Assembly: GCF_025526975.1 (NCBI RefSeq) | Contig: NW_026515668.1 | Span: forward strand, 744,001-808,000 | Length of the DNA stretch: 64,000 bases | Direction of reading: 5' to 3' | From: Fimicolochytrium jonesii | Lineage: Eukaryota | In this document: in pieces, positions 9,408 to 55,559 of the stretch | Layout: each line of letters begins with the position of its first letter | How positions within the stretch are numbered: position 1 is the first letter of the stretch | Translations under genes and position numbers: made by a program | The notes under the pieces: generated by a model | Told to the model about the DNA's origin: nothing | What the model saw: only the letters and a program-made list of their open reading frames with translations | Databases searched by the model: none

Positions 9408-10653
9408 TCAAGCGTACTCCGGACTTCCGAGCTCGCGCATTCTGTCCGCGAAGCACGCGCGTAGCCCCTCGTCCTCTAGCTCTTCCGCTTCGGTAGACAC
9501 GGTAAAGAAGCTTGCTGGATAGATGGCAAACGAGTCGAACGCCTCCACGTTTGCCCCATCCCAATCAAGGATCGCAGTTATATGACCACTCTCGGGATCA
9601 ACCATCACGTTTCCACTGTGCATGTCCGGATGGCAAATGAAACAAAGGCCACGGTGGGCGGTCGGACGTGCAGCACCTATGCGTAGAACAAGGTGCGACA
9701 CTATGGCGAGATTCTGCAGGATACTGCGTCGGACGGCGCCTGGTAGTGTGGCTCAGTACGATTGACAGCGCCTGAACTTGGTTATATGCGTACTCCTCCC
9801 AGTGTAAGTAGGGGCCCACATTGACGGCATGTGCACCTGCCAGTCTGATCGCTTGATCGTGTACGTCAGAAAATAGTGCCCCGACGTAATATTCGCCGTT
9901 CGGGGACAGGCGCAGGCCCCGGAGCTTCCGAAAGGGTTTTGCAAGGATCCGCATTTGCAAGTCTGCGAAATCGAGCAGTATTCTTTCCTTTAATTCGACT
10001 GGCGCACCCGGCCAAACAGCGTGCAACGGCTTGCCAGTTGTTTTCGCAAAGATGGCCGCATGTGGTGGTAGGTCGTGTGACGGAACGGGTCGTTCCCACC
10101 GAGGCCATATCAGCAGTGGTGCGGGAATTCCTACGGCCTCACAAAATCCGCTGGTAGCCGCGCAGCTGTTAAGCTGAGCTTTCCGTGATTTCTGAGCCCG
10201 TGCGGTATCTCGAATGGGAATCCGCACCGCCAGCGGTATGCCGTACCTGTCGGAGCCCTCGGTACGGCATTCGATTACAAGGCGGTAGCCTCCGCAACCC
10301 AGAACTCGGGTCAAGACCACGTCCGTTCCTGGTATGGCGCGGAGACTCCGTCGGAACCGCCGTCGCTTGAAACAGCCGAGGTGGGTGCGCAGAGCCGCCT
10401 TTAAAACAAGGAGTTCTTCTTCTTCTTTGCTTCCCTCTTCGCCTGCTTTGCGGCTTCCTTCTGCTCCCGGGAGGCTTGATGTTGCTGCCCCTTGACACAA
10501 GTCGGGCACTCCTCCGTTTTCAGGTGCGCCATGGAGTGCTCCAGGCATACTTTTTGATGATCGGGACAAAAGCGTTGGCCTGATATAGTCCGCGGTGTCT
10601 TTTGGCAAACAGGACAATGATGAACTAACCTTCCGACCCGAAGGAGGTGTCAT
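9408..10653 (-). pseudogene. APH/phosphotransferase (protein-kinase-like) family gene split over two frames
   Basis: ORF 9598-10653 has the Gly loop LGCGGYRLV. Overlapping ORF 9408-9701 has HPDMHSGNVMVD...ILDWD. No convincing intron joins them, so this is a frameshift near 9.7 kb or an assembly error. Confidence 0.65.
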
Positions 10654-10719
10654 ACCCGGTGACTCTGGTACGCAACTCCAGTGGTCTATGGCTGCAAAGC
10701 AGACAGAGTCCTAGGGCGA

Positions 10720-12420
10720 ATCGATGAAATTTCTCGAAAGCCCCAACACGAGAAAACTTCGAAAGAACTCCGTTATACGTTCGAAAATGGATTAGTACGA
10801 CACGAAGGATGTTTATACGTTCCTGAGGATATTCGCCCGAAGATTTTACGGAAATTCCATGACGAACTCGCCACCGGAGAACATCTCGGTGTTAAGAAGA
10901 CTCTCGCGAGAATTCTTACGGACTATTACTGGCCTACCGTACGCTCCGACGTCATCAAATACGTTGGAACTTGCAAAGCCTGTCGACAATTCAAACCTGG
11001 CCATCGTCGATACGGATTTCTTCGACCTCTTCCTATACCTTTTGGAAGATGGCACACGATCGATTTCGACATTTTCGAAGTAGATGAAACAAACTCTTGT
11101 CTCGTCTGCATTGATTACCTTTCCGGACGTGTGATTCTAACACCTATCAAGAAGACAATCACCGGACGCGAACTAGCCTGTGATGTGGACTACCTTCCAC
11201 ACGGGTTGTATAACTGATGTTCGTATACAATAACTACTTTGCTGTAAGGTATTGTAGACGGACTGGGTGTTTGTCGGCTCTGCTATGTGATATCTAGTAG
11301 AAGAACTACTTGTTGTGCATAGGAACGCGCGACGAGCACTGTTAAAGTACCATGTCGGAGTCCACTGGAGAACACTCTCAAAACGCATCATAGCCCAGGA
11401 AATACCTGTATGTGCCCATCACATACAGGTATTTTTCCCCAAGGCCTGTCTAACAGACGCAACGTGTCGTTCTCCAATAAGACCGGACACTCCACATTAC
11501 ATAGCCCAAGTCTTCTTAGAGCAGTATGGAAACATGTCGGTACGCCAAAAGTCTTCGTTACGGATCGTGAACCTTGCGCACTTTCCGATTTCTTCCTCGC
11601 ATTCGATATTCTCCTCGGTGTAAAACAAGAATTCGCTACGGCTCGTCATCAGCAAACCGATGACAAAGTTGAGCCAGCCATCCAAACCCTGAAAAGGATT
11701 TGGAAGCAATATCTCAACTACGACAAAAGCAATTGGAAGAAACTATTGCCTTTAATTGAATTCGCATACAATACCGCTCCGAGGGAGGAATATGAAGGTT
11801 TATTGCCATTTGAGGTAGATCTTGGACGCTCTCCAATCCTCCCGGGTTGGAATCCAACACTTGAAGGACAAGAACTCAAACTTCGAGCTGCGGATCAAAA
11901 CGAAATCGAACTCTTCAAGAAAGGGCAGGAAGACATCGCCCACATTGTACGCGAAAAGCTTCAGAGATCGCAAAATCAATTTGCACGTCAACGCGACAAA
12001 GGTCGAACGCCAATCGCATACAAAATTGGCGATCTCGTTGATCTGAATTGACAAGGAATCAACCTAGAAGTAGACGCTCGAAGAGGACTTTGATACTCAG
12101 CTATGTGGATCGGACCATTCAAAATCATCGCACTGGGAGCACATCCCGATACCTACGAACTCAATTTATCACCATTGAAGATCAGCGGCATCTTGCCCGT
12201 CTTTCACATCGATATTTTATGATCACATCACGAAGAGCAATATCCGCTACGTGCAGTTCCACAACCTCCTCCACCAATCAAAGAACGCGGACAACCTGAA
12301 TGGGTTGTAGAAGATATCATCGACGAGTGACGCGCCATACGAAATCTTCTAGTCAAATGGCTCGGTTATCCTGACCCTACCTGGGAACCCAAATCCGCAC
12401 TTTGCTACACGCCTGTCTAC
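10720..12420 (+). mobile_element. Degenerate Ty3/Gypsy integrase plus chromodomain remnant, 5'-truncated
   Basis: HHCC zinc finger (FHDELATGEHLG...CKAC), core TIDFD...VTDREP...HQQTD.KVE, GPF motif, and chromodomain PEWVVEDIIDE*...LLVKWLGYPDPTWEP. Contains stops and frameshifts. Confidence 0.9.
11179..11501. mobile_element. 323-bp solo LTR (or MITE-like insertion) nested in the integrase
   Basis: Termini TGTGATGTGGA...TCCACATTACA form an imperfect inverted repeat. A perfect 5-bp TSD TAGCC lies at 11174-11178 and 11502-11506. Excision rejoins GRELA|QVF. Confidence 0.85.
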
Positions 12421-12705
12421 AAACCATGGCGAAGAACTCATCCACAATCTTTGTGGATACGGAGACGAACAGCATAGAGCATCTCATATCACGTCACACG
12501 CGCGACGCCGCAAGAACCGCTCACTATCAATCACACCGATGACAATAGGGACGTAAACTACATCACATCACGCGCGGCGACGCAAGAACCGACCTTACAC
12601 ACACATATCATACACAACGTCAGCTTAGGGACGCCTTTGCCTCAAACACACACATCACACAGTGCGTCAACACTATAAAATGAACATGTTGTAGGCCGAG
12701 CAGAG

Positions 12706-13794
12706 CTACCGAGGGGCTCTATCGACCTTGGAAAAAACTCGAAGATTGATTTGTAGCAGTATTCGTAGTATTCCGGAGCTGACGGCGTCATCAAGAATTT
12801 CCGTAATGCGTGACCCAGCATCAACCTGATTGGCTGAACCTTGTTGTTGATTAGGTTGGCAACTGCGCTGCGGAATTTGAGCGCCACGACCGCGCTGCCA
12901 AAAACCGCCGCGTCGGTTCTGGGTTTGCGAGCCTTGCTGTTGATTTTCGGGATTTGACCAGCATTCATCTCTCCAATGTCCCATTTTGTTACAAAGGGGA
13001 CAAGGAGTCGTTGGACGTTGACGAGGAACGTGAGGAGTTTGCCATTGTCCACGTCGACGAAAGGGCTGTTGACGTTGGTAGGGAACTTGACCTGTGGTGG
13101 GACGACTCACTCCAGGGGGGTAGTATGACGTACCGAGAGCATTGAGCCCAAAGGTCATATCATCTAAGTCTTGCTTGAATTCCGTAATTCGAGGGTTGGT
13201 GCAAGGTGCAAATCGTCCGCCACGACCACCGCCACGACTACCTCGACCGCGACTGGCTCCACGGCCGCCAGGAGCACTTGTTGCCGAGGCAATCGGACGA
13301 GGTGTATTGGCGTGGTTGCCGTCAGTGAACCCATGAGCCACTTGAGAACGACGAGCTGCAGTGATAGCTTGATCGAGAGTGATAGGGGTGTTGATGTTGG
13401 TAGTGCTCGAGACTTCGAAGTTCGTAACGGCTTCAGTGAGATAATGACTGATTACCGTATTCTTGAGAAGACCGGCCTTGAAGTATCGAATTTGATTGAT
13501 AAGGGGAATGGTGCCTTGAGTGTTATCAAGATGATGAGCGGCTTCGAGCTCATTATTGGTGTCTTGAAACTCCTTGATATATTTTTCAAGAGAGTCACCG
13601 AGCTTGAGGCCGGAGAGCTTGAGCTCAATAGTATTACGCAAGTTGCAAGGATAAAAGTGAGCGACAAGAGCCGTTTCGAAAGCTGCCCAATTTGCGGGAG
13701 GTCCAGCGGCGTAAGTCGTATTGTACCACTCGAGAGCAGTACCCTTGAGATAGGTGGTGAGCGTAGGGGCGTACTCTGCCATAGTAAAGGCTAT
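12706..13794 (-). mobile_element. Truncated retrotransposon Gag (capsid plus CCHC zinc knuckle), cut at its 5' end by the LTR at 13795
   Basis: YLKGTALEWY...WAAFETALVAHF capsid motif, RGG-rich linker and CPLCNKMGHWRDEC knuckle. Opposite orientation to the neighbouring integrase remnant. Confidence 0.88.
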
Positions 13795-14340
13795 TGTTAT
13801 GGACGACGCGCCCATACCATAAGCTTACCTACTGACAGCCGCCAATGTCAACCGCCAAATGTCAAACGCCAATGTCAATGTCAATGTCAGTGTCAATGTC
13901 AGTGTCAATGTCAATGTCAATGTCAATGCCACTCCCCCTCTCTCCTCTCATTTTCGCCAATCCTCCCACAATATCGCCACTCCTCCTCTCTCCTCTCATT
14001 TCGCCAATCCCCCCTCGGCTTCTCCACACCCCCCACTACTTCCCCATAGCCAGCAGCTGTAGCAATGCTGTCTACGCTCGCCACGCACGCTCTAGGAGCA
14101 TAGCTGGCGCCCCCCCAGTCCCCTCTTGTTGTTGTTGTTCTCTGATCTGCTGGGTTGCCTATCTATAAATAGACGGCCTCTCTTCGTCCATTCCCTTCCT
14201 CCCCAGCAGATCAACACCAGTTCTTCTCATCTCCTGTTCTAGTCCATGTTTCTTGTTTCGCCAATACAATCTCTTGTCGCCTATCACTCTCGCCCTGACT
14301 TCTCTACTTCGCTTCCGCCTCCGTCGTCGAGATCATAACA
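13795..14340 (+). repeat. 5' LTR (546 bp) with internal (CAATGT/CAGTGT)n microsatellite and TATA box
   Basis: Runs TGTTATGGAC...GATCATAACA, with TATAAATA at 14164. Near-identical to 19308-19872 and, inverted, to 24182-24727. Confidence 0.97.
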
Positions 14341-14409
14341 GTTTGATCTGCTCCAACACTGCGAAGTTCAGAACCCGTCCAGCCCTGCATCCGACAAACC
14401 TTTTTCGCC

Positions 14410-15407
14410 ATGGCCCAACCCGAATCCGTACCTTTCACCGCCAAGCAATGGAACGATATGTGCCAAGCCATCGCCGCCTTGCAAAGCCAAAACGCCAAAT
14501 GCAGGCCAACCTAGCGCAAGCCCAAGCCGACGCACAAGCTGCCCAGAGCATCGCCGCCCAGGTTCAAGCCGATACGTACACCCGTCCCCAAGCCACCAAC
14601 CCTGCTCTGGAGCCAAGAATCAGCTCGCCCGAGAAGTTTGATGGTACCCGCAGCAAATTCCGTGGGTGGTTGAACAACATCCGGTTGATGTTTGCTCTCC
14701 AGCCCGACCGCTACCCCAGCGACATCATCAAGATCCAAACTATTGGCACCTACCTCACCGGCACTGCACAAGCCTGGATGGCGCCCCTAGTCGAACGCCA
14801 AGATCACAGCCTTCAGGACTTCGATAGTTTTATCAGTCAGATGCAATCGGTCTTCGGAGACAGCGACAGGGTCCGCACCTCTGAAAACAAGCTCCAGAAC
14901 CTTCGCCAAACCCGTGCAGCAACCGAGTACGTCGCTGAGTTCCGCCAGCTACAATGCGATGTCTCCTGGAACGACCAGGCCCTGATCGCTACCTTCCGCC
15001 GTGGCCTCAAAGAAGACGTCAAAGACCTGATGCTCACAATGCCCCCTGCGGCCACCATTGATGTGGTGATGGAGCAGGCTATCCAGTGCGATAACCGGCT
15101 GTTTGAGCGCCGCCTGGAGCGAAACAGAAGCCGCCAGACCTTCCCGGTTCCCCATACCTCGTTTACTACTACCACCACTGTCGACCACAGCGAGCCTATG
15201 CAGATTGACGCCGCTCGTCCCCGCGGCCCTCTGAGCCCTCAGGAACGCCAACGCCGCATTTCCAACAACCTCTGCCTTTACTGCGGTGGCGCGGGGCACA
15301 TTGCAAAAGTCTGCCCCGTCAAGAACAAGACCACCACCCGTGCCGCCAACGTCGACATCAAAGAACCCTCCACCGAACAGGGTTTTCCCAAAGTCCAGCC
15401 GCAGTAA
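14410..15407 (+). CDS. gag: Gag of the chromovirus (apparent frameshift near 14496)
   Basis: PEKFDGTRSKFRGWL, LTGTAQAW, LRQTRAATEYVAEF, EPMQID and CLYCGGAGHIAKVC. The ATG at 14410 (MAQPES...) is one base out of frame with the main ORF. Confidence 0.9.
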
Positions 15408-18400
15408 AGCCCCAGCGACTGGACAACACACACCGCCCCGGGCCTCCTAACCTCGCAGCTCCTGCAACGGGAGAGGCCACCCCCCTGGTTCCCGACTCCG
15501 TTATAGCCGACACAACCCTCCTAGCCGCTGCCCATGTCGAAAACTCCGAAATTAACCCCCGCGCCATGCTTGCGTTGGGTCCCGTCGAACCCTTCAACTA
15601 CCCCGTTACCATCATGGTATCATCCAGCCGCGCCCTGATACCTATCCTCAGCCATGATCGACAACGGTGCCCTGTCCTGCTTCATCGACAGAGACTTTGC
15701 CCGCAAACACCGCATCGCCCTAGTCCCACAGCAGCGTCCACTGACGATCGAACTCAGTTGACGGTCAACCCAGCTCTGCTGGGCCAATCACCCATCACAC
15801 CCAACCAGTAGGCATGTGGGTCGACGACCACTTCGAAGAACTCGTCTTCCATGTCACCAAATCACCCCATGCTCCAATCCTCCTTGGTCTCCCCTGGCTC
15901 CGCCTCCACGACATTAACCTTGACTTCAAGAACCTTTCGGTCGGTTTCCGTTGCGACTGTCTGTACCATGAATTCGCGAATTGGGACAACTCTCCAGCAC
16001 CCCCAAGCCCAGCACCCGCCAGAACCCCCGAGCCCTTGATCCGCATCCCCCAGGATGAAGTCCCCGTCGACGAAACATGGTCGATTCCAGTACCCAAGGT
16101 ATCTTGCTCCAGCACCCCAGAACCGGCTCCCACGCTGCTCCGAGTCTCGTTCATCTCTGCCCCAGCCTTCCGGGTCGCAGCAAGGCATGACCAGGTCTTT
16201 GTCGCCTACGCCAACCCTGCGAAACCCGATCTCCCAGCCTCGCCTAGCCCCAGTAACCCCCCGACACCCGAGAAAGACATCAAAGACTTCCTGCCCCCCG
16301 AGTAATCAAGACTTCGCCGACGTTTTCGAAAAGAGAAATGCTGACACTCTCCCCGAGCACCGGCCCTACGACTGTCCAATCGATCTGGAAGAAGGCAAGC
16401 AGCCACCTTTCGGCCCGATCTACAGCCTCAGCAAACCAGAAATGAAGGCACTCTGCGAATACCTCGAAGAAAACCTCGCCAAAGGATTCATCAAACCCTC
16501 AAAGTCCCCTGCCGGTGCGCCAGTCTTATTCGTGAAGAAAAAGGACGGTTCTCTCCGCCTCTGCGTCGATTATCGAGGCCTGAACAGCATCACGGTGAAG
16601 AATCGCTACCCCCTGCCCCTGATCAACGGTATCATGGATTGTTTGCGCGGCGCCCGCCGTCTCACCAAGATCGACCTCCGCGGCGCTTATAACCTCTTAC
16701 GCATGCGCCCTGGGCGATGAATGGAAGACCGCCTTCCGCTGCCGCTACGGCCTATTCGAATACAATGTCATGCCCTTTGGACTCAGCAATGCTCCTGGCG
16801 TCTTCCAGTACCTGATGAACGACATCTTCCGCGACATTCTCGATGTGTTTGTTGTCGTCTACCTCGACGATATCCTGATATTCTCCAAGAACCCCGAAGA
16901 TCACCCCAAACATGTCCGCGAAGTCTTGTCCCGCCTCCGACAGCATGGGTTGTACGCCAAACCAGAGAAGTGCGAATTCAACCGCGAATCCGTTGAGTTC
17001 CTAGGCTTCATCATCTCCAAGAAAGGCATCCAGATGGACCCCAAGAAGATCGCTGCCATCACGGATTGGGAACCTCCCAAGAATGTCAAAGGCGTCCAGC
17101 GGTTCCTCGGCTTTGCCAACTTCTATCGCCGATTCATCCAAGGTTATTCCAAGATCGCTACCCCGCTCACAGCCCTGACCCGGAAAGACATCCCGTACGC
17201 CTGGACACCCGCCGCAAACACCGCCTTCGAGAACCTGAAGAAAGCATTCACCACCGCCCCCATCCTTGCTCACCCTGACCCAGAGAAGCCCTTCGTCGTC
17301 GAAACTGACGCCTCCGACTTCGCTCTTGGCGCAGTTCTCCTCCAACCTGACCAGGACAATCAGCTCCACCCCGTGGCCTTCCACTCTCGCAAATTCACGG
17401 CCGAAGAGATCAACTACGAGATCTACGACAAGGAACTTCTGGCCATCCAAGACTCCTTTGCCCAGTGGCGCCACCATCTCATTGGCGCCCGTCACAAGAT
17501 CACCGTTTACTCCGACCACAAAAACCTTCAGTACTTCATGACCACCCGCACCCTGAACCGCCGCCAAGCCCGCTGGTCGATATTCTTCTCGGATTTTGAC
17601 TTTGTCATTACCTATCGCCCCGGTCCCCAGCAGCACCAAGCCGATGCCCTCTCCCGACGCTCCGAACATGAGCTAAAAGAGGGGGAAGAAGCGTTCCGCT
17701 CCCAGGCAACCACAATTTTGACTCCCGAACGCCTTCGACTCGCGGCTGCCTACCTCACACCCATGGATACCACGCTGCTTGACAAGATTAAGGCCGCCCA
17801 GGCCTCTGATCCCCTCGCTAAGACCATTCGCGAAAAGCTCAAGATACCCCTCGCCCAACGAACTGAGGAAACCCAAGATCGTATCAAGCGGTTCTCAGAT
17901 GAAGATGGGATCCTGCTGCACGATAACCTGGTCTATGTCCCCACCAACGAGCTCCGAGCTGAAGTCTGCCACGACATGCACGATACTCCCCTAGCCGGCC
18001 ACTTTGGGATGTCCAAGACGCTCGAACTCGCCTCCCGCAACTACTGGTGGCCCAGCCAGTGGCGCTTCGTCAAGGCCTACGTCAAGTCCTGCGATACCTG
18101 TAGCCAAGCGAAATCCAGTCGACACAAACCATACGGCCTACTCCAGCCCAACAGTATCCCTACCCGCCCTTGGGGATCTTGGTCCCTGGACTTTATCACC
18201 GGTCTGCCTCCCGTGGACGGGTACGACTCCATCCTGAACGTCAACTGTCGCCTCACCAAGATGGCCCACTTCATCGCCTGCAGCGAGTCAGAATCCGCCG
18301 AATCCACCGCCGACCTAGTCTTCCACAACATCATCCGTCTCCACGGCCTCCCCGACGACATCATCTCTGACCGAGGACCCCAGTTTAAGTCCCGGTTCTG

Positions 18401-19295
18401 GCGTCGACTTCTCGAACTCCTTGGGGCAAAAGCCAACCTCTCCTCGGCCTTCCACCCCCAGAGCGATGGCCAGACGGAACGCACCAACCAGATCCTGGAG
18501 CAGTATCTCCGATGCTTTTGCAACCACCAACAGGACAACTGGAAACAGCTTCTGTCGTCCGCCGAGTTCGCCTACAACAACACCCATCAGTCCGCCTCCC
18601 AGACCACCCCCTTCTACGCCAACAAGGGTCTCCACCCCCGCTTCAGTTTCGCGGCCTCTGCTACCTCCGAATCCGTCAACCCCGCCGCTGAAGCCCGCGC
18701 TAAACAAATCAGGGAAGTCCATGAACAGCTCGCCCTCGAGCTCAAGGAAGCCCAAGATCAAATGAAGCGCTACGCCGACGCCAAACGAATTCCTGGACCG
18801 GACTTCAAGCCTGGCGACCACGTCTGGCTCCTCCGCAAAAACCTCCATACAACCCGGCCCTCTCAGAAACTCGACCATCGCAAGATTGGGCCATTCCCCA
18901 TCGTTGAAAAAATCAATCCCGTCGCCTACCGGCTCAAGCTCCCGCCTACGTACAAAATCCACGATGTCTTCCATGTCTCGCTCCTCGAACCCCGCTTCAC
19001 CATCCCCGAACGACACGAACCCGAACCCGCGCCCCCAGAGACCGTTGAGGGTCAAGAAGAGTGGGTTGTCGAAGCCATCCTTGACTCTCGCATCCATTGT
19101 CGTCGCCTTCAGTACTTGGTCAAATGGCAGGGCTGGACTGACTCCGAGAACACCTGGGAGCCCGTGGAACACCTCACCCATACCGACGCACTCCTCCAGG
19201 ACTTCCACAGCGCGTACCCCAACAAGCCTTCCTCTGTCCCCGTAGCACCTCCTCTGCGGCCACACCAAACTCGACGCCGCCGCCGCCGCCGCTAA
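15380..19295 (+). pseudogene. pol: Pol polyprotein (protease, RT, RNase H, integrase, chromodomain), frameshifted in its 5' third
   Basis: Protease AMIDNGA (~15651) and [19 protein letters not shown] and YLDD. RNase H TDASDFA. Integrase HHCC plus DDE. Chromodomain EWVVEAILD..YLVKWQG. Indels near 15645, 16303 and 16715; 16770-19295 is open. Confidence 0.93.
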
Positions 19296-19307
19296 AGAGA
19301 GGGGTGA

Positions 19308-19872
19308 TGTTATGGACGACGCGCCCATACCATAAGCTTACCTACTGACAGCCTGCCAATGTCAACCGCCAAATGTCAAACGCCAATGTCAATGTCAATG
19401 TCAGTGTCAATGTCAGTGTCAATGTCAATGTCAATGTCAGTGTCAATGTCAATGTCAATGCCACTCCCCCTCTCTCCTCTCATTTCGCCAATCCTCTTGC
19501 AATATCGCCACTCCTCCTCTCTCCTCTCATTTCAGCCAATCCCCCCTCGGCTTCTCCACACCCCCCACTACTTCCCCATAGCCAGCAGCTGTAGCAATGC
19601 TCTCTACGCTCGCCACGCACGCTCTAGGAGCATAGCTGACGCCCCCCCAGTCCCCTCTTGTTGTTGTTGTTCTCTGATCTGCTGGGTTGCCTATCTATAA
19701 ATAGCCGGCCTCTCTTCGTCCGTTCCCTTCCTCCCCAGCAGATCAACACCAGTTCTTCTCATCTCCTGTTCTAGTCCTTGTTTCTTGTTTCGCCAATACA
19801 ATCTCTTGTCGCCTATCACTCTCGCCCTGTCTTCTCTACTTCGCTTCCGCCTCCATCGTCGAGATCATAACA
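19308..19872 (+). repeat. 3' LTR (565 bp)
   Basis: TGTTATGGAC...GATCATAACA directly after the PPT. Longer microsatellite and roughly a dozen differences from the 5' LTR. Confidence 0.97.
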
Positions 19873-20202
19873 GCGCTGGTGTGGGCAATCTGACCTTGAC
19901 GCATTCACCGTGTTAAATCAGGTTGGTCCGCTAGAGCGGTCTGCATCAGACACCTTTCTCTAGCAGGCACGCAGAAGCACGCACACCTTACACACCACAC
20001 AGCGGCACATAACATGCAGATCGATGCGCCGATATGCTCGTACAACCCCTACCTGTACAACCCCTACCTGTACAACCCCAACATGTACTGCTCCCCCCAA
20101 TAAACCCCGCGCTCCAATAAAATCCTCCTTCTCCGTTTCCTCCATCTTCGTGTCGATACAAATCAGAATGGGTCAGCGCAATCGTTCTAAAGTCTGCAAT
20201 CG

Positions 20203-21487
20203 CTATAAAGACTCAGCAAGCCCAAGGACGCGCCCGGCAGCAACGACACCCTCCTCCCGCAACAACCGTTCGACTTGTTTTGCCAGCTTCTCGTTGATTT
20301 GAACGGAGGTCCCGAGGCGATTGGAGTCGTTGCCTCTGACGGACAACGTGGTTGCGTGTACATCCTCAGGCCCTCGCCAAACAATCTCGACTACGCCGTC
20401 GCACGCATCAAAATCCACATACACACGATAGTCCGCATTTACAAAGACTCCACCATGACAGGCGAATCCATCCGCCTTGCTCTTCAGCTTGCCCGTTGTG
20501 TTCGAGACTGGGAACCAGATTCCGTATGTGAGTTTCGATGTGTTGTTATCGCGGTGGAATTTATTGGCAAAGTCATCCCATGTGGCGGTGATATTGCTGG
20601 CGAAGGAGTCATCCGCGACGAGGTCCCCGAATTCCGCTTGTGAAATAGTAGGCACACGCAGTTCCTTTGCCCGCTTTTTGATGCGAGAAAAGAGGTAAGG
20701 GGAAAGCTTATTGAGGAAGTAGATGTAATGCGCCTCAATCTTTGGTAACTCAGCTTGCAAGGCGGCCCACTTCTCCCTGCTAACGGAATCCTTTTTTCGT
20801 GGTTGATAGATGCCCATGCTTTTTCCACTATCTGTACCCACACGCCAGCCAACACCGATCATGGTACCAGACGTCTGTGTACCATTTATCGTCACAGGGT
20901 AAGCTAACTGACGCTGGTGGTCGAGGTGGAGCGCAATCTCCTCAAAACGGGTCCTGTCATCCGCTGACATATCCGCAAACGGATGAAACCTTGCCGCAAA
21001 TACAATCTCATCCGTTTGCCTGTCGGCTACAACAAGGATGTCCTTGTAGAGACGGGTGTACGGGTGATCGTGATCAACTTCCCTGGTATATTGCTTGAGG
21101 AAGTCTTCGTGCGTAAGGTGCTTTCCAAACGGATGCGGGCTGGTTTGCTGCTCAGTCTTTCTTGTTGCCCAGAATATGTACGCACTGTCGCCGGAACCTG
21201 TGGCACAAGGCCATACAACAGTTGGTCAGTCGCGTTGGTTGAGACGGTCAGTCGCGTTGGTTGAGACGTGTCTGACAGCATACGTAATGAAACGAACCTT
21301 GGTCAACACTTCTATGCTCAGCTCCAGCCTCGGTATCACCCGCCGTCTTCAGTATCCTCCGCATGTTTTCATTCTTTTCTTGTTTGCGCTGTCGGTTTGC
21401 CGCCTTTCCCCTTGCCCAATCGGCTCCGGAACGTCGTCGCGGCTTTGACTTCGACCCTGGCTTTGACGTTGATGCTGATTCTGTCAT
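20203..21487 (-). CDS. TET/JBP-family (Tet-like) 2-oxoglutarate/Fe(II) dioxygenase, 2 exons, ~394 aa
   Basis: Exon 21487-21298, intron GTTCGT...CCACAG (21297-21198) and exon 21197-20203 give an uninterrupted 1185-nt CDS. Motifs FASNITAT, FANKFHRD (HxD), GGVFV, EIVWRG..DVHATT (distal H) and NRLGTSVQ (2OG-binding R). Basic N-terminus. Confidence 0.8.
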
Positions 21488-21589
21488 GCTGATTTGCCTG
21501 GTGAATGGAGTATGTAAATTAGTTGGGGCGGAGTACGTAGGTTGTCCCAGGAGCATTGGAGTGGGTTTGTGACGTAGAATGGCAAACAA

Positions 21590-21695
21590 ATCGCGAGGCT
21601 GCCCCTATTCCGGGCTGTCTCGGGCGATCGCGAGTCGAGAAGGTTGCTAAGCGTATCGCGAGGCTGCCCCTATTCCGGGCTGTCTCGGGCGATCG
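21590..21695. repeat. Two exact 41-bp direct repeats upstream of the TET-like gene
   Basis: ATCGCGAGGCTGCCCCTATTCCGGGCTGTCTCGGGCGATCG at 21590-21630 and 21655-21695. Confidence 0.92.
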
Positions 21696-21710
21696 GTTTT
21701 GGTAATGTGT

Positions 21711-22349
21711 ACGCTCGTGCTTATTACAGCCTTCACGCTCGGCCTTACGCCCACGCTCGGCCTTATTACAGCCTTCACGCTTGGCCTTATGACAGCCTTC
21801 ACGCTCGGCCTTATAACAGCCTTCACGCTCGGCCTTATCACAGCCTTCACGCTCGGCCTTATTACAGCCTTCACGCTCGGCCTTATGACAGCCTTCACGC
21901 TCGGCCTTATTACAGCCTTCACGCTCGGCCTTATTACAGCCTTCACGCTCGGCCTTATTACAGCCTTCACGCTCGGCCTTATCACAGCCTTCACGCTCGG
22001 CCTTATTACAGCCTTCACGCTCGGCCTTATTACAACCTTCACGCTTGGCCTTATGACAGCCTTCACGCTCGGCCTTATAACAGCCTTCACGCTCGGCCTT
22101 ATCACAGCCTTCACGCTCGGCCTTATTACAGCCTTCACGCTCGGCCTTATTACAGCCTTCACGCTCGGCCTTATTACAGCCTTCACGCTCGGCCTTATTA
22201 CAGCCTTCACGCTCGGCCTTATTACAGCCTTCACGCTCGCCCTTATTACAGCCTTCACGCTCGGCCTTATTACAGCCTTCACGCTCGGCCTTATTACGGC
22301 CTTCACGCTCGGCCTTATGCCCACGCTCGGCCTTACGGCCTTCACGCTC
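21711..22349. repeat. 24-bp tandem minisatellite, ~26 copies
   Basis: Unit CCTTATNACAGCCTTCACGCTCGG with shortened units near both ends and no spacers. Confidence 0.97.
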
Positions 22350-22727
22350 TCAGCGCCGTGGTTTGCCATTTGGTACGGCTGGTACGTAGGGGGTAGGCAC
22401 TACTACCCCAGAATTCAATTTCCCACATCCAAAAAACGAATCATGGCTCGAGTCCTGCAACATAGGGCACTCAACTCTCCTCTTCCGCTTATGCAGATAC
22501 CGATAGACATCCATGTGCAGTATTCATGTTCGAGCTGGAGATGAGATATGGTGGGTGATCAATGATGACTGATGAGGCTTTGCGAAAAACCGGAGATCAA
22601 ACGGGAACAGGATGGTTGACGGAAACAGGATGGTTGCACGGTAACGGGATGGTTGGACGGAAACGGGAGACGCAAGGATGGGATGCGGAACTGCCACCTT
22701 GTTGCTACAGGCGTCCCTCTGTCTGAT

Positions 22728-25437
22728 ATGAAAGTGAGACTGTCGCACACGGGAGGAGAGCGATGGTGGAGGAGAGGAGGGGTAGCTGGCAGGTTGTGCC
22801 GGGACTCCAGGACTCCCGCACTTGCAGAACATTCCCACTTGCACATCTTCATGCACATCCTCACGCTGGTCTCTTGTTTTACAGACTAAGCGACGAAACG
22901 AATCTGAAGGGGAGGGGAAGCGGACAAAGCGGGCAACAGCGGTACACGGATTCAGTCGTTTTAATACACTTCTGAAGCAAGATGCAGTCGGAATCATCTC
23001 ACGCTTCAACCTCAACGTCGAATCCGCGGAGGAATATGCCACAACAATTGCGCACCCCGACACAAGCCGTATCAGGTGGATAAACGCATGACGAAAACAT
23101 CTATATGACCAGCTCAGAGCGGGAGAGAAGGAGGCGATCGAAGGGATTCCGTTGTCCCCAACTCCAACTCCAACACCAGCCCATGCCCTTGACATGTTAC
23201 TGAGCGCCGCGAAACATCTCCTCACTTACGCCGATTCCAGTATCGAATTCGGATTGTTTACCTTTGATCACACTACAGAGTGCGCAACAGCAACAGGGAC
23301 ATCTCCGATGCTGTGTGCGACGCTTAGTGACGGGTCAGCTAAAGCTGATAATGTTTGTCAGCGAATCAAGACCCATTTTCGCACACTTGCACGTAAGTTA
23401 CATGCCGTTGTCCTCATGCTCCGTGTGTCTGTCCTCGGCCACTAATCAGGGATATTATAGAAACCGCTTCATGCCCCCCCAAACGCCGCATGTACTTTAC
23501 CTCCAGGGAGGATGTCGTCGCGTTTGTCAAAGAGTGCTACAATCAGGCATTCGTGAAGGAGTGTCACCAAACACATTTTTGCGAGATATTGGCCTTCCAT
23601 GAGAGGTACCCATATGCGAGCGGGTGTCCGCCATATCATCCATACTTTGGCGCGCTGGCCAAAGCAAAAATGGATCAAGGTCAGCGAGACGTGTGGGGAA
23701 TGTATGCCCCCTACCTGGAATTCAAGTGGCGCAAAAAGGGGCAGAAGCTGTCTCTAGGTAAGGCGACCGGACCGTGTTCCCGCATGCATTGACACAGCAC
23801 ACTCACCTATGTATCATAGACGACATTTTTGCTCCGGTTCTCCCAAATGACCCTCTCGCTATGCGGCCCAGGGCGCGGATCCACCAGTTTCTTGACAAGG
23901 CTGCATGGGCACAGAGCCTGGAAGGAGATCACGATCACCAGCCCACACCAACACCTGGCCCAACCCACACTACCACACCCAGCGCCATCTCAAACCCCGA
24001 CATTGGTTTTGCTTTTGGCAGAGTTGACGACGGCGGCGGCGGTGTTGAAATCGTGGCAGGCAGCGGCGGCGGTGGCAGCGGCGGCGGTGGAGTTGAGGGA
24101 GTTGACGAGGACCAGGCGCGACAGATGATGAACACTGATGCTTGTCTCTGGATATATAGGTGGTGCGCGTTGTTACAAGCCTGTTATGATCTCGACGACT
24201 GAGGCGGAAGCGAAGTAGAGAAGACAAGGCAAGAGCGATGGGCGACAAGAGATTGTATTGGCGAAACAAGGGACAAGGACTAGAACAAGAGATGAGAAGA
24301 ACTGGTGTTGATCTGCTGGGGAGGAAGGGAATGGACGAAGAGAGGCCGGCTATTTATAGATAGGCAACCCAGCAGGCCAGAGATCAACAACAACAAGAGG
24401 GGACTGGGGGGGGCGCCAGCTATGCTCCTAGAGCGTGCGTGGCGAGCGTAGAGAGCATTGCTACAGCTGCTGGCTATGGAGAAGTAGTGGGGGATGTGGA
24501 GAAGTAGTGGGGGATGTGGAGAAGCCGAGAGGGGATTGGCGAAATGAGAGGAGAGAGGAGGAGGGGCAATATTGCGGGAGGATTGGCGAAATGAGAGGAG
24601 AGAGGGGGAGTGGCATTGCCATTGACATTGACACTGACATTGACACTGACATTGACATTGACATTGGCGGTTGACATTGGCGGCTGTCAGTAGGTAAGCT
24701 TATGGTATGGGCGCGTCGTCCATAACAAAGCCAGGTCATCACGGCACCCAACCATTTATCCGCCACTGCTAGCCGTTGGATCCACTTGGCTCCAAAGTGT
24801 CAAAATGGCACGGAGATCCAATGTCCCTATTTGGGTTGTTCCGGTAAGAAAAGTTACTTAACCGTACCGTACTTAACTAAACTAACCTTCCTTTTTTTTG
24901 TTTGATGTTAAGCGGTCTGTCAACATCGCAGAGTACAACATACTGCTATCCCCAACAAACCCAGACAATCTGCATTGGGTCCTGTTTGCGATACTCGTCG
25001 CGGTGCCGGCGCCCAAGTCCGCAAAACCCCTGGGCCCCCCTGGTGCGCCATTAACCAGACACGAAAACCTATCCATAGTTTTATTTGACTCCAAGGCTTG
25101 CCCAGGCGACAAGTACCACATTGATAAGATGGCCAATATCGGCTCCATCTTGTGGGATTGGTACACCAGGGCCACTGAAGCCCCCCTCAACGACGCACCG
25201 ACACCGACGGTTGACGCCCTCTTCACGCCTCGACAGACCAATGACCAGAACTGCGGTACATTTGTGTGCATGATGGCCGATGCCATTGCCCGTGGTGCGG
25301 TGGGTGAGGTCTCAGAATCATGGTCCGATACGCAGACCGCCGTCAATGCCCGCCATAATATCGCTCTGAGCATCGTTTTGGCGACGTTTCTTAATGAGGG
25401 GGATGCTCATCAGTATATGAATGTGACAAAGTGCTAG
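22728..25437 (+). pseudogene. Multi-exon gene ending in a Ulp1/SENP (C48) cysteine peptidase domain, disrupted
   Basis: Last exon has NLHWVLFAI, LFDS and PRQTNDQNCGTFVC (H-D-Q-C catalytic set). In-frame TGA at 23089-23091 and a solo LTR at 24182-24727. Start position approximate. Confidence 0.78.
24182..24727 (-). mobile_element. Solo LTR of the same family as 13795-19872, inverted
   Basis: Reverse complement of the LTR, with perfect 5-bp TSD AAGCC at 24177-24181 and 24728-24732. Confidence 0.96.
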
Positions 25438-25710
25438 ATCTCTGGTGACTGTAGCCATAGTCCCTTCAATAGCATCATTGTACAGTAGTAGTCAAAATGC
25501 CGTACAAACATCGGCCACGCTTCGGCCAGGTCTACACAAAAGATCCAGTCCTGATCAGGGCTGCTGCCGGATTCACCTGGAATATACCGGCGGCCACAAC
25601 GAATGTGTTGAACTTCGGCGCATCGAGTCCAGAAACCGTCACAGTAACCGGATATGGCTTGATGAACTTCATTATTTCTGGAGGTGCCGTGCAGCCAACC
25701 TTCCAATGTC

Positions 25711-25901
25711 AACCCTAACCCAAGAGAGGTGACCTAACACTCCCAAGACCCGAGTTAGGGTTGCGGGTAGGGTTAGGGTCGTTGCGGGTTGTGGTTAGGG
25801 TTAGGGTTAGGGTTGGGTTAGGGTTAGGGTTGTGGGAAAGGAAAATGTGCTCGTACAGCGTTGCGCCAATAATGAAAAGGGTTAGGTTAGGGTTAGGGTT
25901 A
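25711..25901 (+). repeat. Interstitial telomere-like repeats (TTAGGG and variants)
   Basis: Short AACCCTAACCC, then degenerate GGTTAGGGTTAGGG tracts at ~25756-25831 and 25878-25900. Confidence 0.9.
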
Positions 25902-25911
25902 TATCCTGTGC

Positions 25912-25950
25912 GAAATTCTACCAAGTGCGGGTAAACGGCGGGAGTAACTA
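25912..25950 (+). other. 39-nt fragment of the LSU (28S) rRNA H68-H69 region; not an rRNA gene
   Basis: GAAATTCTACCAAGTGCGGGTAAACGGCGGGAGTAACTA matches the conserved eukaryotic LSU sequence GAAATTCAACCAAGCGCGGGTAAACGGCGGGAGTAACTA (recalled) at 37/39. Confidence 0.88.
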
Positions 25951-26420
25951 CATACAGAGTCCATTCGGCAGCGTTGTTAGGTTGAGGATTGTTTTGAGGG
26001 GGGTGGGGTGAGGGGTGTTGGGTAAGCGGAGGGAGAGTAGATGTTGATGACGCCGGTGTCGGAGCTGGGGGGTGGGGGGAATCGGGTTAGGTGTGTGCGA
26101 GAAGGGGTTTGATGGGGATGAACTCGTTACCCTGTGGCGATCAAGTCGGTGCTGTAATATGTTTGTCAGAAAGTAAGGCGACGCATAGAAATCACGCCGT
26201 CACATGTCCTGTGGTCCTGTTGGCTCAGCCCTTGGCTCTCACAACAAGCTCAAAACCCAACAGAACTTCCAGCTGCCGAGCTGCCCAGGATACATTTACT
26301 CCCATTTAGACATCCGTACCTTGGCGCATCTCAAGACAACGACGCAAAGCAGCAACTGGTTGGTTATTAAGGACTGTGCAGCGACCAGCCCTTTGAGAAC
26401 AAAGCTATTACCTCCGCCAG

Positions 26421-28186
26421 ATGCCTTCACCTCCGAAGCCTTGGGAAGTTTCTGGAGCCGCAGGAGGGGCAGGTCCAGTTCCAACCGCAACAACAACGAG
26501 CGCTGCGCCGGCGAGTGCAGCACAGTCAGGACAAACAACGGCTTCCACTGCTGGTCCACCTCCTGTACCAACGCGACCGGACTCCGCTTCTGTAGCTTCC
26601 GCTGGTAAGTTGCACTCCTAGCGGAATTGCGCCTCAAGTATTGTGATTGACGATGCTGTTTTCCTGTAGGATATTCTTCGACCATGTCTGGTTACAATAG
26701 CGGGTATGGCGCTAGCCCATACGGAAGCCAGATGGCCAGTCAATACGGAACGCAGTATGGGGCAGGTTATGGGTCAACACTGTCGCCTTACGCCTCCCGC
26801 TACGGCGCAGGTTCAACATACGGAGGATACGGGTCGACCTATGGAAGTACATACGGAGGTGGATACGGAGCAGGAGGATACGGGGGCGTCGGGGGCTATT
26901 CGAGATATGGGGGCACAGGCTACGGGACTATGCCGTACAATCGATTCGGCGGAGGTCCGCCTTATGGACCAGGCGGGCCCGGGGACATGCCCCTATCCGC
27001 GCAACTCGAGCAATCCACGCAGGCCACGTTCAATACCCTCGACTCGATCGTGCAGGCATTTGCTGGGTTCGCACAGATGCTGGAGTCGACGTTCATGGCC
27101 ACACACTCGAGCTTCATGGCCATGGTCGGGGTGGCTGAGCAGTTCGGGAACTTGAAATCGTACTTGGGCCAGCTATTCTCCGTGATGTCGCTGTACAGAC
27201 TCGCAAAGAGGATATACTGCAAGCTCACGGGCAGAGCGCCGCCCGTGGACGTGGCATCGTTGAACGCGGATTCGTTCAAGGATTTCCAGGAGGGGAAAGA
27301 TGGGAAGAAGCGAAGCAAGAAACCTCTTTGGGTGTTCCTCCTGTTCACCATCGGGATTCCTTACGCAATTTCGAAGCTCTTCCAGCGTCTGCAAAAGCAG
27401 CGATTGGAAGCGGCTGCCAACGCTCCCGAGGGGGCCCTCCCACTGGTCGGCCCCGATGGAAACCGTCTAGGCCCGCAAGAAATCCGAAACCTCGATTTTG
27501 GCCGCGTCCTCTACGACTTCAATGCCGAGAACCCCGGTGAATTGTCCCTGCCGAAGGGGGAGATTGTTGCAATCTTGAGCAAAATCGACCCAGCCACAGG
27601 CCAGCCGGGACTGTGGTGGCGAGGCCGCTTGCAGGCGGGGCAGATGGGGATGTTCCCTGCCAATTATGTCGAGTTGATACCCAAGAAATTCCCCGTAAAT
27701 GATGCGGAGATACTGCAACCCATGAGGGAAGCGCCGCAACCGCCGACTTCATTTACTGGTCTTGGGGCTACCAACCTCGCTGCCCCAACGACGGTACCAA
27801 CCGTATCACAGCTAGCTGATCCCGCGCAGCCGGCACACATTCCGCCTCAGACAACCACCATACCAGCACAAACACCACAAGCCATACCCAGCCAACCGCG
27901 ACCCGCCACCCCATCGTCAACCGTCTCCACACCATCACAACAGCTCGCACCACCAAAACTTCCCCCACCAGCGAAATCCACTGCGCCCAAAAAGCCATGG
28001 GAGATAGCAGCATCAACCCCGCCGACTTTCAAGCCGCCATCTTCCATGGGCAACGGTTCCCTAGCACCAGCGACACCCGCCGCGGCGGCTCCGCCGGGCC
28101 CAAAATCGGACCCGCTGCCGTTTGACCCGGCGGAAATCAACGAAGGACCTGAGAATACGCGCTTTGGACCGTCGCTTGTGACTTGA
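26421..28186 (+). CDS. PEX13: Peroxisomal membrane protein PEX13, 2 exons
   Basis: N-terminal MPSPPKPWE and YG-rich region. STQATF..LDSIVQAFAGFAQMLESTFMATHSSF. TM segment, then SH3 (LYDF...WWRGR...GMFPANYV). Intron ~26606-26670. Confidence 0.96.
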
Positions 28187-53432: not shown

Positions 53433-53757
53433 GAGGGCGTTTCTCTGCAACCCTCGTTGCCTTCACTAGCCCCCGCCTATTGATATATATCAACTTCGTT
53501 TAGGTGCCACCCTTACGTAGTCAAGATCTATCCTTAACGTCCCCATTTACTGTAACTGCTCTCAAAATACATGATTCTTTTTTGGGAAGTGACGGGCGGA
53601 CGACTGGTGCTGGAAAGACACGCCGGACTACCTGTTGGGGTGTTTGTACAGTTCAGCCGGGGGTTTTTGATTGCCGTGGTAGCTGTGTGTCAAAACTCTC
53701 GCCTCAGTGCTGTGGTAATGAAGCTGCAATGGGTGATTGGAGGGTCTCTGTCATGCG

Positions 53758-54126
53758 ATTAGGGTTGGGGATTAGGGTTATCACCGGGTTAGGGTTGTGA
53801 GGTTGGGATTAGGGTTGATAGCCCTAACCGGGATTAGGGTTGGGGATTAGGGTTATCACTGGGTTAGGGTTGTGAGGTTGGGGATTAGGGTTGATAGCCC
53901 TAACTGGGATTAGGGTTGGGGATCAGGGTTATCACCGGGTGAGGGTTGTGAGGTTGGGGATTAGGGTTGATAGCCCTAACCAGGATTAGGGTTGGGGATT
54001 AGGGTTATCACCAGGTTAGGGTTGTGAGGTTGGGGATTAGGGTTGATAGCCCTAACCGGGATTAGGGTTGGGGATTAGGGTTATCGCCAGGTTAGGGTTG
54101 TGAGGTCGGGGATTAGGGTTGATAGC
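53758..54126 (+). repeat. 76-bp telomere-derived minisatellite, ~4.9 copies
   Basis: Units start at 53758, 53833, 53909, 53985 and 54061. Each has up to four TTAGGG, and full units carry one inverted CCCTAAC. Confidence 0.95.
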
Positions 54127-55169
54127 TGGAACCTTCCCCCACAAGGCCAAGAACCATGTACCCGTTGCAACTCCGCACTTGACGCGTTTGCTTCAAATTC
54201 AAATTCAGGCACCCACCTCACAGCGCTCAGTGCTCACACTCTAGAGAAATTCGTATATGAAGCAAGTACGAAGTCCCGTCGTCCGATCTCCGCTTTCTGG
54301 GCTTCTTATGACCTGTTCGCGTTTCGCGTTTCTTTATGTCAGCCTCTCTGCGCCTTTCTTGCAAACGGCAGTCCTCGCACCCCGACCGCCCCTGATGCTC
54401 TCCTGCCATGGGACTCGAGATTCTGAGTCGAGAACAGCTCGGCCCCCTGTCACCACCCTGCATACCCCGTGAACTCTCCTATATATATAGCTCTCCTGTC
54501 GCACTCCTGTCGCACTCCTTTCACTTTACTTTCACCCTCCTGTCCATCAACTTGACTGAAGGCTTGAATATCCTTGGAAGCTAGGGCAAACTATTTTCAC
54601 GCTTGCTCTTCCAGGTTTGGAGGGTGGTCAGCGAGTACACTACTGACGGTTGAGCTGCCGGGCCTATATGGATCAGACTATTTTTTGTAGTCTGACGGGA
54701 CCATTATTTTGCCAAGAAACTCCGGGCTCGTTCCAGGTCGGCCTACATCTACAGCATCTCGTGCTCGCTCGGTTGTCCGAAGTGAACGAAACGACCGCTT
54801 TCGTGCAGTGAAAGGGAGTTAGCAACCTTAGTCCGACCGCAGCGTACCTCTCTTCGAAGTTCCATACAGGCATCCGAGCCACTGTGGTTTGCCATGGGTT
54901 TTCCGCGACCTCGGAATACTCATAATCGTCTTGGCCTGGAAACCCTCTGTGGTGTGCTACACTCCACTACTCCAGTCGGTCGGGTTAAATTAATTGACCT
55001 GTTCATCGCTTAAAAGATGTTTGACTTCCATATCAGAGTTTTCATGAAGCGCTCTTTTCCTCTTATACTTTCCGTTCCATCGCATTCGTTGCGCGTATAT
55101 CAAAGATCTTTCTGAGGCTCTAACACGCCAGTTCTGCGAAGGCCTCGAATAGACCAACGTTCGAAGTTT

Positions 55170-55559
55170 TTGGCTCCGAGTGGCATGTTCCTCTGGGTGG
55201 TTCACGATCGCGTTCCAGAATGCGTGCAAAGTCACCCAGACGAGACAGTCGCGGAGCTCTTCAACAAAGTTCGGGATACATATAGTCAACTCCGATCGGG
55301 CACCGTTTGGCCGCCTGGCTTGGTCTTGCAGTTCCCACGTGGGAAAGGATGCTGTGCTGGGTGGATTGTTGGCGTGAACCAGCTTGGAGCATATTTTGGA
55401 ACGGCAGTCAACGAAGCAACGAGAGTGGGGACTCTTGTAGACCTAGCCTTTGGAGATGGGTGGTGTGGGACAGTGAACCCGGGGTATGAGGATTTCGTAG
55501 AAGTGCAGATCCGATCAGAAGCTGAAGCTAGGCCTGGGGACGATATGGAAGGTAGGTGA
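55170..55559 (+). CDS. Hypothetical ORF, possibly a gene remnant
   Basis: 129-aa ORF with protein-like composition in an otherwise geneless 2.6-kb interval. No recognisable motif. Confidence 0.25.
   Translation: MAPSGMFLWVVHDRVPECVQSHPDETVAELFNKVRDTYSQLRSGTVWPPGLVLQFPRGKGCCAGWIVGVNQLGAYFGTAVNEATRVGTLVDLAFGDGWCGTVNPGYEDFVEVQIRSEAEARPGDDMEGR

Follow-up and report, generated by a model that had tools for sequence, protein, structure and literature searches.

What is the 6-kb stretch that lies next to the host gene PEX13 in the chytrid Fimicolochytrium jonesii, and how did it come to end in telomere-like repeats and a piece of 28S ribosomal RNA (rRNA) gene? The window analysed here is 64,000 nucleotides of contig NW_026515668.1. 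Its positions 19873-25950, called the module below, hold a TET/JBP gene on the minus strand and a Ulp1 gene on the plus strand, placed back to back (divergently) around a shared spacer. An earlier note on this DNA took the module to be one arm of a large mobile element, and all the features that it had seen in this interval were confirmed in the sequence. The reading that we favour, in an evenly balanced judgement, is that a multi-copy DNA transposon of this Spizellomycetales chytrid left the stretch behind as a decayed, non-autonomous piece, and that the telomere/28S patch is a repair scar adjacent to it. Coordinates are collected in Table 1.

The TET/JBP frame is open over 394 aa (ATG at 21487, a single 100-nt intron at 21297-21198, stop at 20203). 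The HxD...H triad of a 2-His-1-carboxylate site (H215, D217, H281) is invariant in 21/21 aligned homologues, and the protein, as judged from its sequence, is a TET/JBP dioxygenase with a complete predicted catalytic triad. The predicted structure, which is confident (predicted local distance difference test, pLDDT, 87.6), is a TET-type double-stranded beta-helix fold that is CcTet-like: the top ten Foldseek matches are led by CcTet (best E 5e-12, TM ~0.5), followed by TET2 and CMD1. A sequence search of the PDB with the same protein gave no significant match.

Protein searches returned 430 representative TET homologues at E <=0.001. Sixteen were looked up, and the eight with a taxon comprise seven Dikarya and one amoebozoan (Sphaerosporella, Ceratobasidium three times, Melampsora, Boletus, Ascobolus, and the amoebozoan Clastostelium); no orthologue from another chytrid is among these eight. 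One of the ten best matches is a Melampsora protein, so the window TET is probably PU-like, to judge from these matches. In a tree of 111 of the 156 domains, kept by length, the window protein falls among mostly unnamed proteins with support of 0.62-0.73, a tentative placement on which no claim of horizontal transfer is based. A fused Ulp1 or transposase domain was found in none of 26 TET homologues scanned. The sole close relative is P0001, also from F. jonesii, with 95% identity over 98 aa; it is broken (frameshifted, truncated, and missing the distal His) and sits on a contig separate from those of all five Ulp1 relatives. The matches that follow P0001 have 31-44% identity.

The Ulp1 gene is bigger than the exon that was first noticed: when a solo long terminal repeat (LTR) is left out, five exons read through but for one TGA. 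The catalytic exon (24913-25437) matches Peptidase_C48 above the cut-off (PF02902, E 1.9e-8), with the HW, FDS, and QxxxxxCG motifs visible and the catalytic domain C-terminal. The copy is a pseudogene with three lesions, namely the nonsense codon, a 137-residue deletion, and the solo Ty3/gypsy LTR, which is flanked by a 5-bp target duplication (AAGCC). Divergent TET and Ulp1 genes, as the earlier note had them, are thus borne out by PF20515 and PF02902; the lesions had been missed, and its picture of two anti-silencing tools fails for this copy, in which Ulp1 is dead. The N-terminal region is an orphan, with no known family in Pfam scans and no usable match in the Atlas.

The Ulp1 gene belongs to a family with five annotated F. 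jonesii relatives on four contigs. In best local alignments with the window these are 93% (P0158), 88% (P0157), 86% (P0002), and 82% (P0003) identical; the fifth, P0159, is 97% identical to P0002, and the two are on one contig with accessions 7 apart. At least two relatives look broken, P0157 by a frameshift and P0158 by an early stop. The closest solved structure to P0002 is SENP2 (E 3e-4), and SUMO would therefore be the likely substrate. A single-sequence model of P0159 (pLDDT 36) was unusable for fold comparison. The RefSeq numbers of P0158 and P0001 are 16 apart, on different contigs; if the numbering tracks position, both could lie near contig ends, that is, in subtelomeres or just at assembly breaks in repeats.

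Single-copy genes had been named as a finding that would speak against mobility, and the genes are not single-copy: five Ulp1-family proteins and one truncated TET occur in F. jonesii on five contigs, several of them broken. At the level of protein evidence, the TET/JBP gene sits in repeated, dispersed DNA, and the protein searches returned no close TET or Ulp1 relative outside F. jonesii. As the relatives are dispersed, recently diverged, partly broken, and confined to one species, the sequences argue for mobile DNA rather than single-copy host genes. Searches of contig collections added no further copies. Neither TET alone nor the five-protein alignment found a related locus in metagenome or viral contigs. 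The viral contigs contained no match to the Ulp1 exon either, and the array unit, the 28S core, and the junction pattern each scored 0 there, although for the junction of a fungal element this test is a weak one; plasmid sequences gave chance-level matches only.

How does the module compare with known elements? Kojima (2025) gives 11 TET-positive lineages of DNA transposons (Dileera, Kyakuja, Zisupton, hAT7, IS3EU, PHISTA, EnSpm, ESTA, Plavaka, and Helitron1/2; PMC12730594), so the earlier attribution to KDZ (Kyakuja-Dileera-Zisupton) or Plavaka elements is too narrow. The hosts there are rusts, agarics, and Pezizomycetes, and chytrids, SUMO, ulp1, Dada, and rDNA do not appear in the main text (PMC12730594). 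An anti-silencing role of transposon TET has been proposed in other fungi, without experimental validation (PMC12730594). Like these elements, the module has a free-standing HxD-type TET/JBP gene, a predicted CcTet/TET2/CMD1 fold, and repeated DNA; unlike them, it has a chytrid host and a neighbouring Ulp1 gene, and no transposase or termini were found here. Zisupton is also among the DNA transposons that bear Ulp1. Ulp1 cargo is further described for Ginger1 and Mutator (PMC2836005) and for Helitron-like elements with Peptidase_C48 (PMC11417382). The gene in the window resembles theirs in its C-terminal C48 domain and in being multi-exon and multi-copy; the Ginger1 transposase itself carries the domain as a fusion, whereas here it follows the orphan N-terminal region in a dead copy. 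Among the marks of these groups are target duplications of 7-8 bp or 2-3 bp in KDZ or Plavaka elements, while a Dada-like element splits an RNA gene in two, with a duplication of 6-7 bp. On its sequence the module resembles a TET-positive DNA transposon; no superfamily is assignable, and this copy yielded no transposase.

On the left the module has no natural edge, since position 19873 is simply the first base past the 3' LTR of a Ty3/gypsy element that cuts it. This element is near-complete with broken frames, and its LTRs are identical at 535/545 aligned bases (98%). The flanks (GCTAT and GCGCT) form no target duplication, and the gag fragment to the left has no continuation on the right side; therefore DNA was lost or exchanged here. 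The full element probably arose by recombination between two insertions or lies beside a deletion. Loss of a left arm, as proposed earlier, is thus plausible; for the mobilisation gene that was to have gone with it, no transposase or terminus was found. The DNA left of the gypsy element (gypsy debris, an APH-like gene, and MOB1) may never have been adjacent to TET, and the suggested search for an empty site between MOB1 and PEX13 may not hold, as two unrelated loci may have been fused in the gypsy rearrangement. An inversion between the 3' LTR and the solo LTR as the origin of the divergent layout was rejected because the solo LTR retains its target duplication. Next to the element, 10663-13794 holds a degraded gypsy integrase/SH3/chromo region (+), and a separate gag fragment (-) is cut by the element. 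The module as a whole is embedded in a 15-kb nest of retroelement fragments.

The spacer between the genes carries an exact duplication and a 24-bp array, in which 12/27 units equal the consensus. Each unit holds two CpG, and the array has 8.6 CpG/100 nt against 6.8 for the window; the array is real and mildly CpG-rich, and the label "CpG array" was overstated. Shortly past the TET stop, at 20040-20088, a 15-bp repeat (x3.3) is C-rich on the plus strand and loosely telomere-like, in a sense opposite to the right-hand tract; it aligns with the right end no better than expected by chance.

On the right, TTAGGG repeats and a large subunit (LSU) rRNA fragment do precede PEX13, as reported. The tract begins ~300 bp past the Ulp1 stop, and the interval 25700-25910 contains 9 exact TTAGGG, where the rest of the window would predict 0.01. 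It is short, with perfect runs of 3, 2, and 2 repeats (longest 3), mainly in one orientation, and its G-rich strand points away from the Ulp1 gene. Under the convention of at least two tandem repeats at an internal site, it counts as an internal telomere tract. A second TTAGGG-rich array lies elsewhere in the window, and each of its units holds four TTAGGG-type words and one CCCTAA; it has a 14-nt word in common with the tract at 25821. As this array has no TET, Ulp1, or 28S sequence alongside, such tracts are not peculiar to the module. A nearby frame (54993-55442, -) has no Pfam match, and the same holds for a 58-codon open frame just inside the tract (25535-25708, -).

The 28S piece was compared with 20 loci taken from contigs of a prokaryote collection. 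Its 24-nt core is exact in 20/20, by construction of the scan, and 37/39 nt match at 4/20. Of these loci, ten were scanned with Rfam, which identified every one as LSU rRNA (8 eukaryotic and 2 archaeal); the piece in the window gave no Rfam match, being too short. It stops 8 nt short of a TTAA that we take to be the R2/Pokey insertion site. Among the fetched loci, insertions at or near the TTAA are group I introns in L003 and L015 and non-rRNA sequence in L006. These three (L006 at 434-824) are eukaryotic 28S contigs within prokaryote genome records, and L006 departs from rRNA at the TTAA into unrelated sequence, possibly an R2-type insertion. There is one 28S flank only: no other stretch of the window matched ~800 nt of LSU (best E 2.4). 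Rfam found no ribozyme or other RNA family in 19000-27000 or 25850-26050, and an R2-style ribozyme head at the end region finds no support, with no Rfam family and folding no better than that of shuffles (z 0.85). A 180-nt G/T-rich stretch (25951-26130, +) follows the piece.

Table 1. Positions of the features discussed, in coordinates of the 64,000-nucleotide window
Feature	Position	Strand	Basis
TET/JBP-type 2-oxoglutarate-Fe(II) dioxygenase gene, intact, 2 exons	20203..21487	-	Pfam PF20515 (Tet-like), E 9.3e-52
41-bp exact direct duplication upstream of TET start	21590-21630 and 21655-21695		repeat family D10
24-bp minisatellite between the divergent genes, 25.6 copies, 94% matches	21711..22318		tandem-repeat listing
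Ulp1/C48-peptidase gene, pseudogenised, multi-copy family	22870..25437	+	exon-by-exon match to P0157, P0158, P0002, P0159, P0003; PF02902
In-frame TGA, Arg in relative P0157	23089..23091	+	protein comparison
Internal-deletion junction; 137 residues of P0002 gone, apparently just an intron tail left	24131..24159	+	comparison with P0002
Solo LTR in Ulp1 exon, gypsy family of the neighbouring element	24182..24727	-	503/525 aligned bases identical to each full-element LTR
Target duplication of solo LTR	24177-24181 and 24728-24732		
Degenerate telomere-like tract	25711..25903	+	CCCTAA at 25713; TTAGGG and variants at 25753-25834 and 25878-25903
28S rRNA piece, 39 nt, sense orientation, 2 mismatches	25912..25950	+	LSU rRNA comparison
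Ty3/gypsy chromovirus-type LTR retrotransposon, cuts module on the left	13795..19872	+	gag, reverse transcriptase, RNase H, integrase, and chromo domains
LTRs of this element	13795-14340 and 19308-19872		
Second TTAGGG-rich array	53757-54126		76-bp unit x4.9, 95% matches
PEX13, host gene, right-hand neighbour	26421..28186	+	Peroxin-13_N and SH3; start taken from sequence

Based on these observations, the favoured reading would run as follows. The parent element would have borne a TET enzyme that oxidised methylated bases on the element's DNA and so eased silencing, together with a Ulp1 peptidase that cleaved SUMO or a related tag, both genes being driven from the shared spacer with its duplication and array. 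A gypsy element would then have inserted in the Ulp1 gene and collapsed to the solo LTR, while the stop and the deletion also accrued. The left arm and any transposase would have been lost when gypsy struck a second time, through LTR-LTR recombination or deletion. The right side may once have stopped at a break or chromosome end, to which telomere repeats would have been added; a short filler from rDNA would mark the place where it was later joined to the PEX13 side. We infer this role of the 28S piece by analogy. In Pyricularia/Magnaporthe, telomere tracts that lie internally and lack a target duplication have been described as what is left of healed ends (PMC8381367, PMC7367193). The patch shares with these relics an internal TTAGGG tract that is short, partly degenerate, and free of a target duplication, with transposon debris alongside; it is unlike them in that no MoTeR-like retroelement end occurs here, and 28S filler is not described in the portions of those papers drawn on. 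By this analogy, it is more likely that the patch is a junction left by break repair or by a telomere turned internal than that a transposon has such an end of its own.

Several points weigh against this account. None of 100 short open reading frames (ORFs) around the module encodes a transposase or RepHel, and none of 18 ORFs matches a DNA-transposase family in Pfam. The left arm is cut off in this copy, and other copies may bear a transposase; the earlier suggestion to look for a linked KDZ, Plavaka, or Helitron gene gave no match in the ORFs scanned around the module, with no Pfam match to a KDZ or Plavaka transposase. The best candidate for a terminal inverted repeat linking the left remnant to the right end is a 12-bp match, which 30/300 control windows equalled and which is thus at chance level; a Helitron 3' hairpin-CTRR was not found on the plus strand of 25400-26420, and the single truncated copy shows no element termini with a target duplication. 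CpG decay is slight here, so 5-methylcytosine (5mC) is no more than a putative TET substrate in F. jonesii: the CpG observed/expected ratio in the module is 0.8-1.1, and LTR differences fall at CpG in 2/10 cases (full-element pair) and 5/22. The scar reading of the patch is drawn only by analogy, and, to judge from the second array, TTAGGG-rich motifs could equally be ordinary repeat components of the F. jonesii genome. Finally, five Ulp1 relatives stand against one of TET and no contig is known to carry both, so TET and Ulp1 may be separate passengers.

This last point leads to a rather unlikely alternative, in which there is no single element and TET and Ulp1 are independent repeats, or belong to two elements, piled up in a formerly subtelomeric block that moved inward beside PEX13. 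Besides the uneven counts on different contigs, a subtelomere would have much the same mix of a tandem array, nested gypsy pieces, and decayed telomere repeats (PMC8381367), and P0002 and P0159, seven accessions apart on one contig, fit a segmental duplication. Against it, the divergent layout is undisturbed, and the genes were not joined by LTR-mediated inversion, since the solo LTR has its target duplication; fungal TET genes are mostly transposon cargo (PMC12730594). The counts themselves come from incomplete repeat annotation, and even the window's own TET was absent from the protein-search results.

It is clearly unlikely that the TTAGGG repeats and the 28S piece are instead the true right terminus that the earlier note proposed, serving as binding sites or as a target copy for self-capping or for homing to telomeres or the rDNA hotspot. 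The start of the patch so soon after the Ulp1 stop would suit a terminus, and the 28S piece adjoins the R2/Pokey site. Both R2 and Pokey target 28S (PMC3706591, PMC8869645), and Dada elements, which target U6, U1, and tRNA genes, bear short target-like RNA-gene motifs and often retain one target flank (PMC3706591). As with Dada, Pokey, and R2, one flank of the module bears part of a multicopy RNA gene, near the 28S hotspot (PMC3706591, PMC8869645); unlike these elements, the module shows no transposase, reverse transcriptase, or target duplication, and has a single flank. Nothing in the data links the patch to the element: a matching left end was not found, the 28S piece has two changes and falls short of the TTAA, and the junction pattern did not recur in the viral contigs, for what that weak test is worth. 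A wider form of this idea, a chytrid transposon family with TET and a SUMO-type peptidase in which every copy ends in TTAGGG and a 28S hotspot copy that guides it to telomeres or rDNA, is quite improbable. The TET gene could also be a domesticated host gene, kept under selection in a dead element and regulating 5mC or N6-methyladenine (6mA). Its open frame and complete triad beside a Ulp1 gene with three lesions would fit this, F. jonesii has 6mA above 1% (PMC11258239), and CcTET also oxidises 6mA (PMC12730594). We consider it very improbable: the taxon-bearing hits include no other chytrid, the 95% identical relative is broken, and the solo LTR is ~4% diverged, so decay is recent and an open 1.2-kb frame requires no selection.

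Two features of the surroundings touch none of these arguments. The APH-type phosphotransferase gene (9408-10600, -) has two overlapping frames, from a frameshift or an intron, and no tRNA genes were found in the window.

What, then, would the locus mean? No description of TET in chytrids, or of telomere repeats with an rRNA fragment, in such a combination was found in the literature searched. Both TET and Ulp1 were already known as transposon cargo, so finding them paired adds modestly to that; the novelty is mainly the chytrid host, plus one unexplained junction, and the telomere/28S patch is significant only if it recurs at other copies. Were the wider form of the terminus reading true, no TET-positive element outside Dikarya would be known before this one, and its target-mimicking end would be of a new kind. 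Given the 6mA level of F. jonesii (PMC11258239), 6mA is among the possible TET substrates. If the module is indeed a piece of a transposon, the range of TET transposons would take in Chytridiomycota, a step past the 2025 survey of three Dikarya classes.

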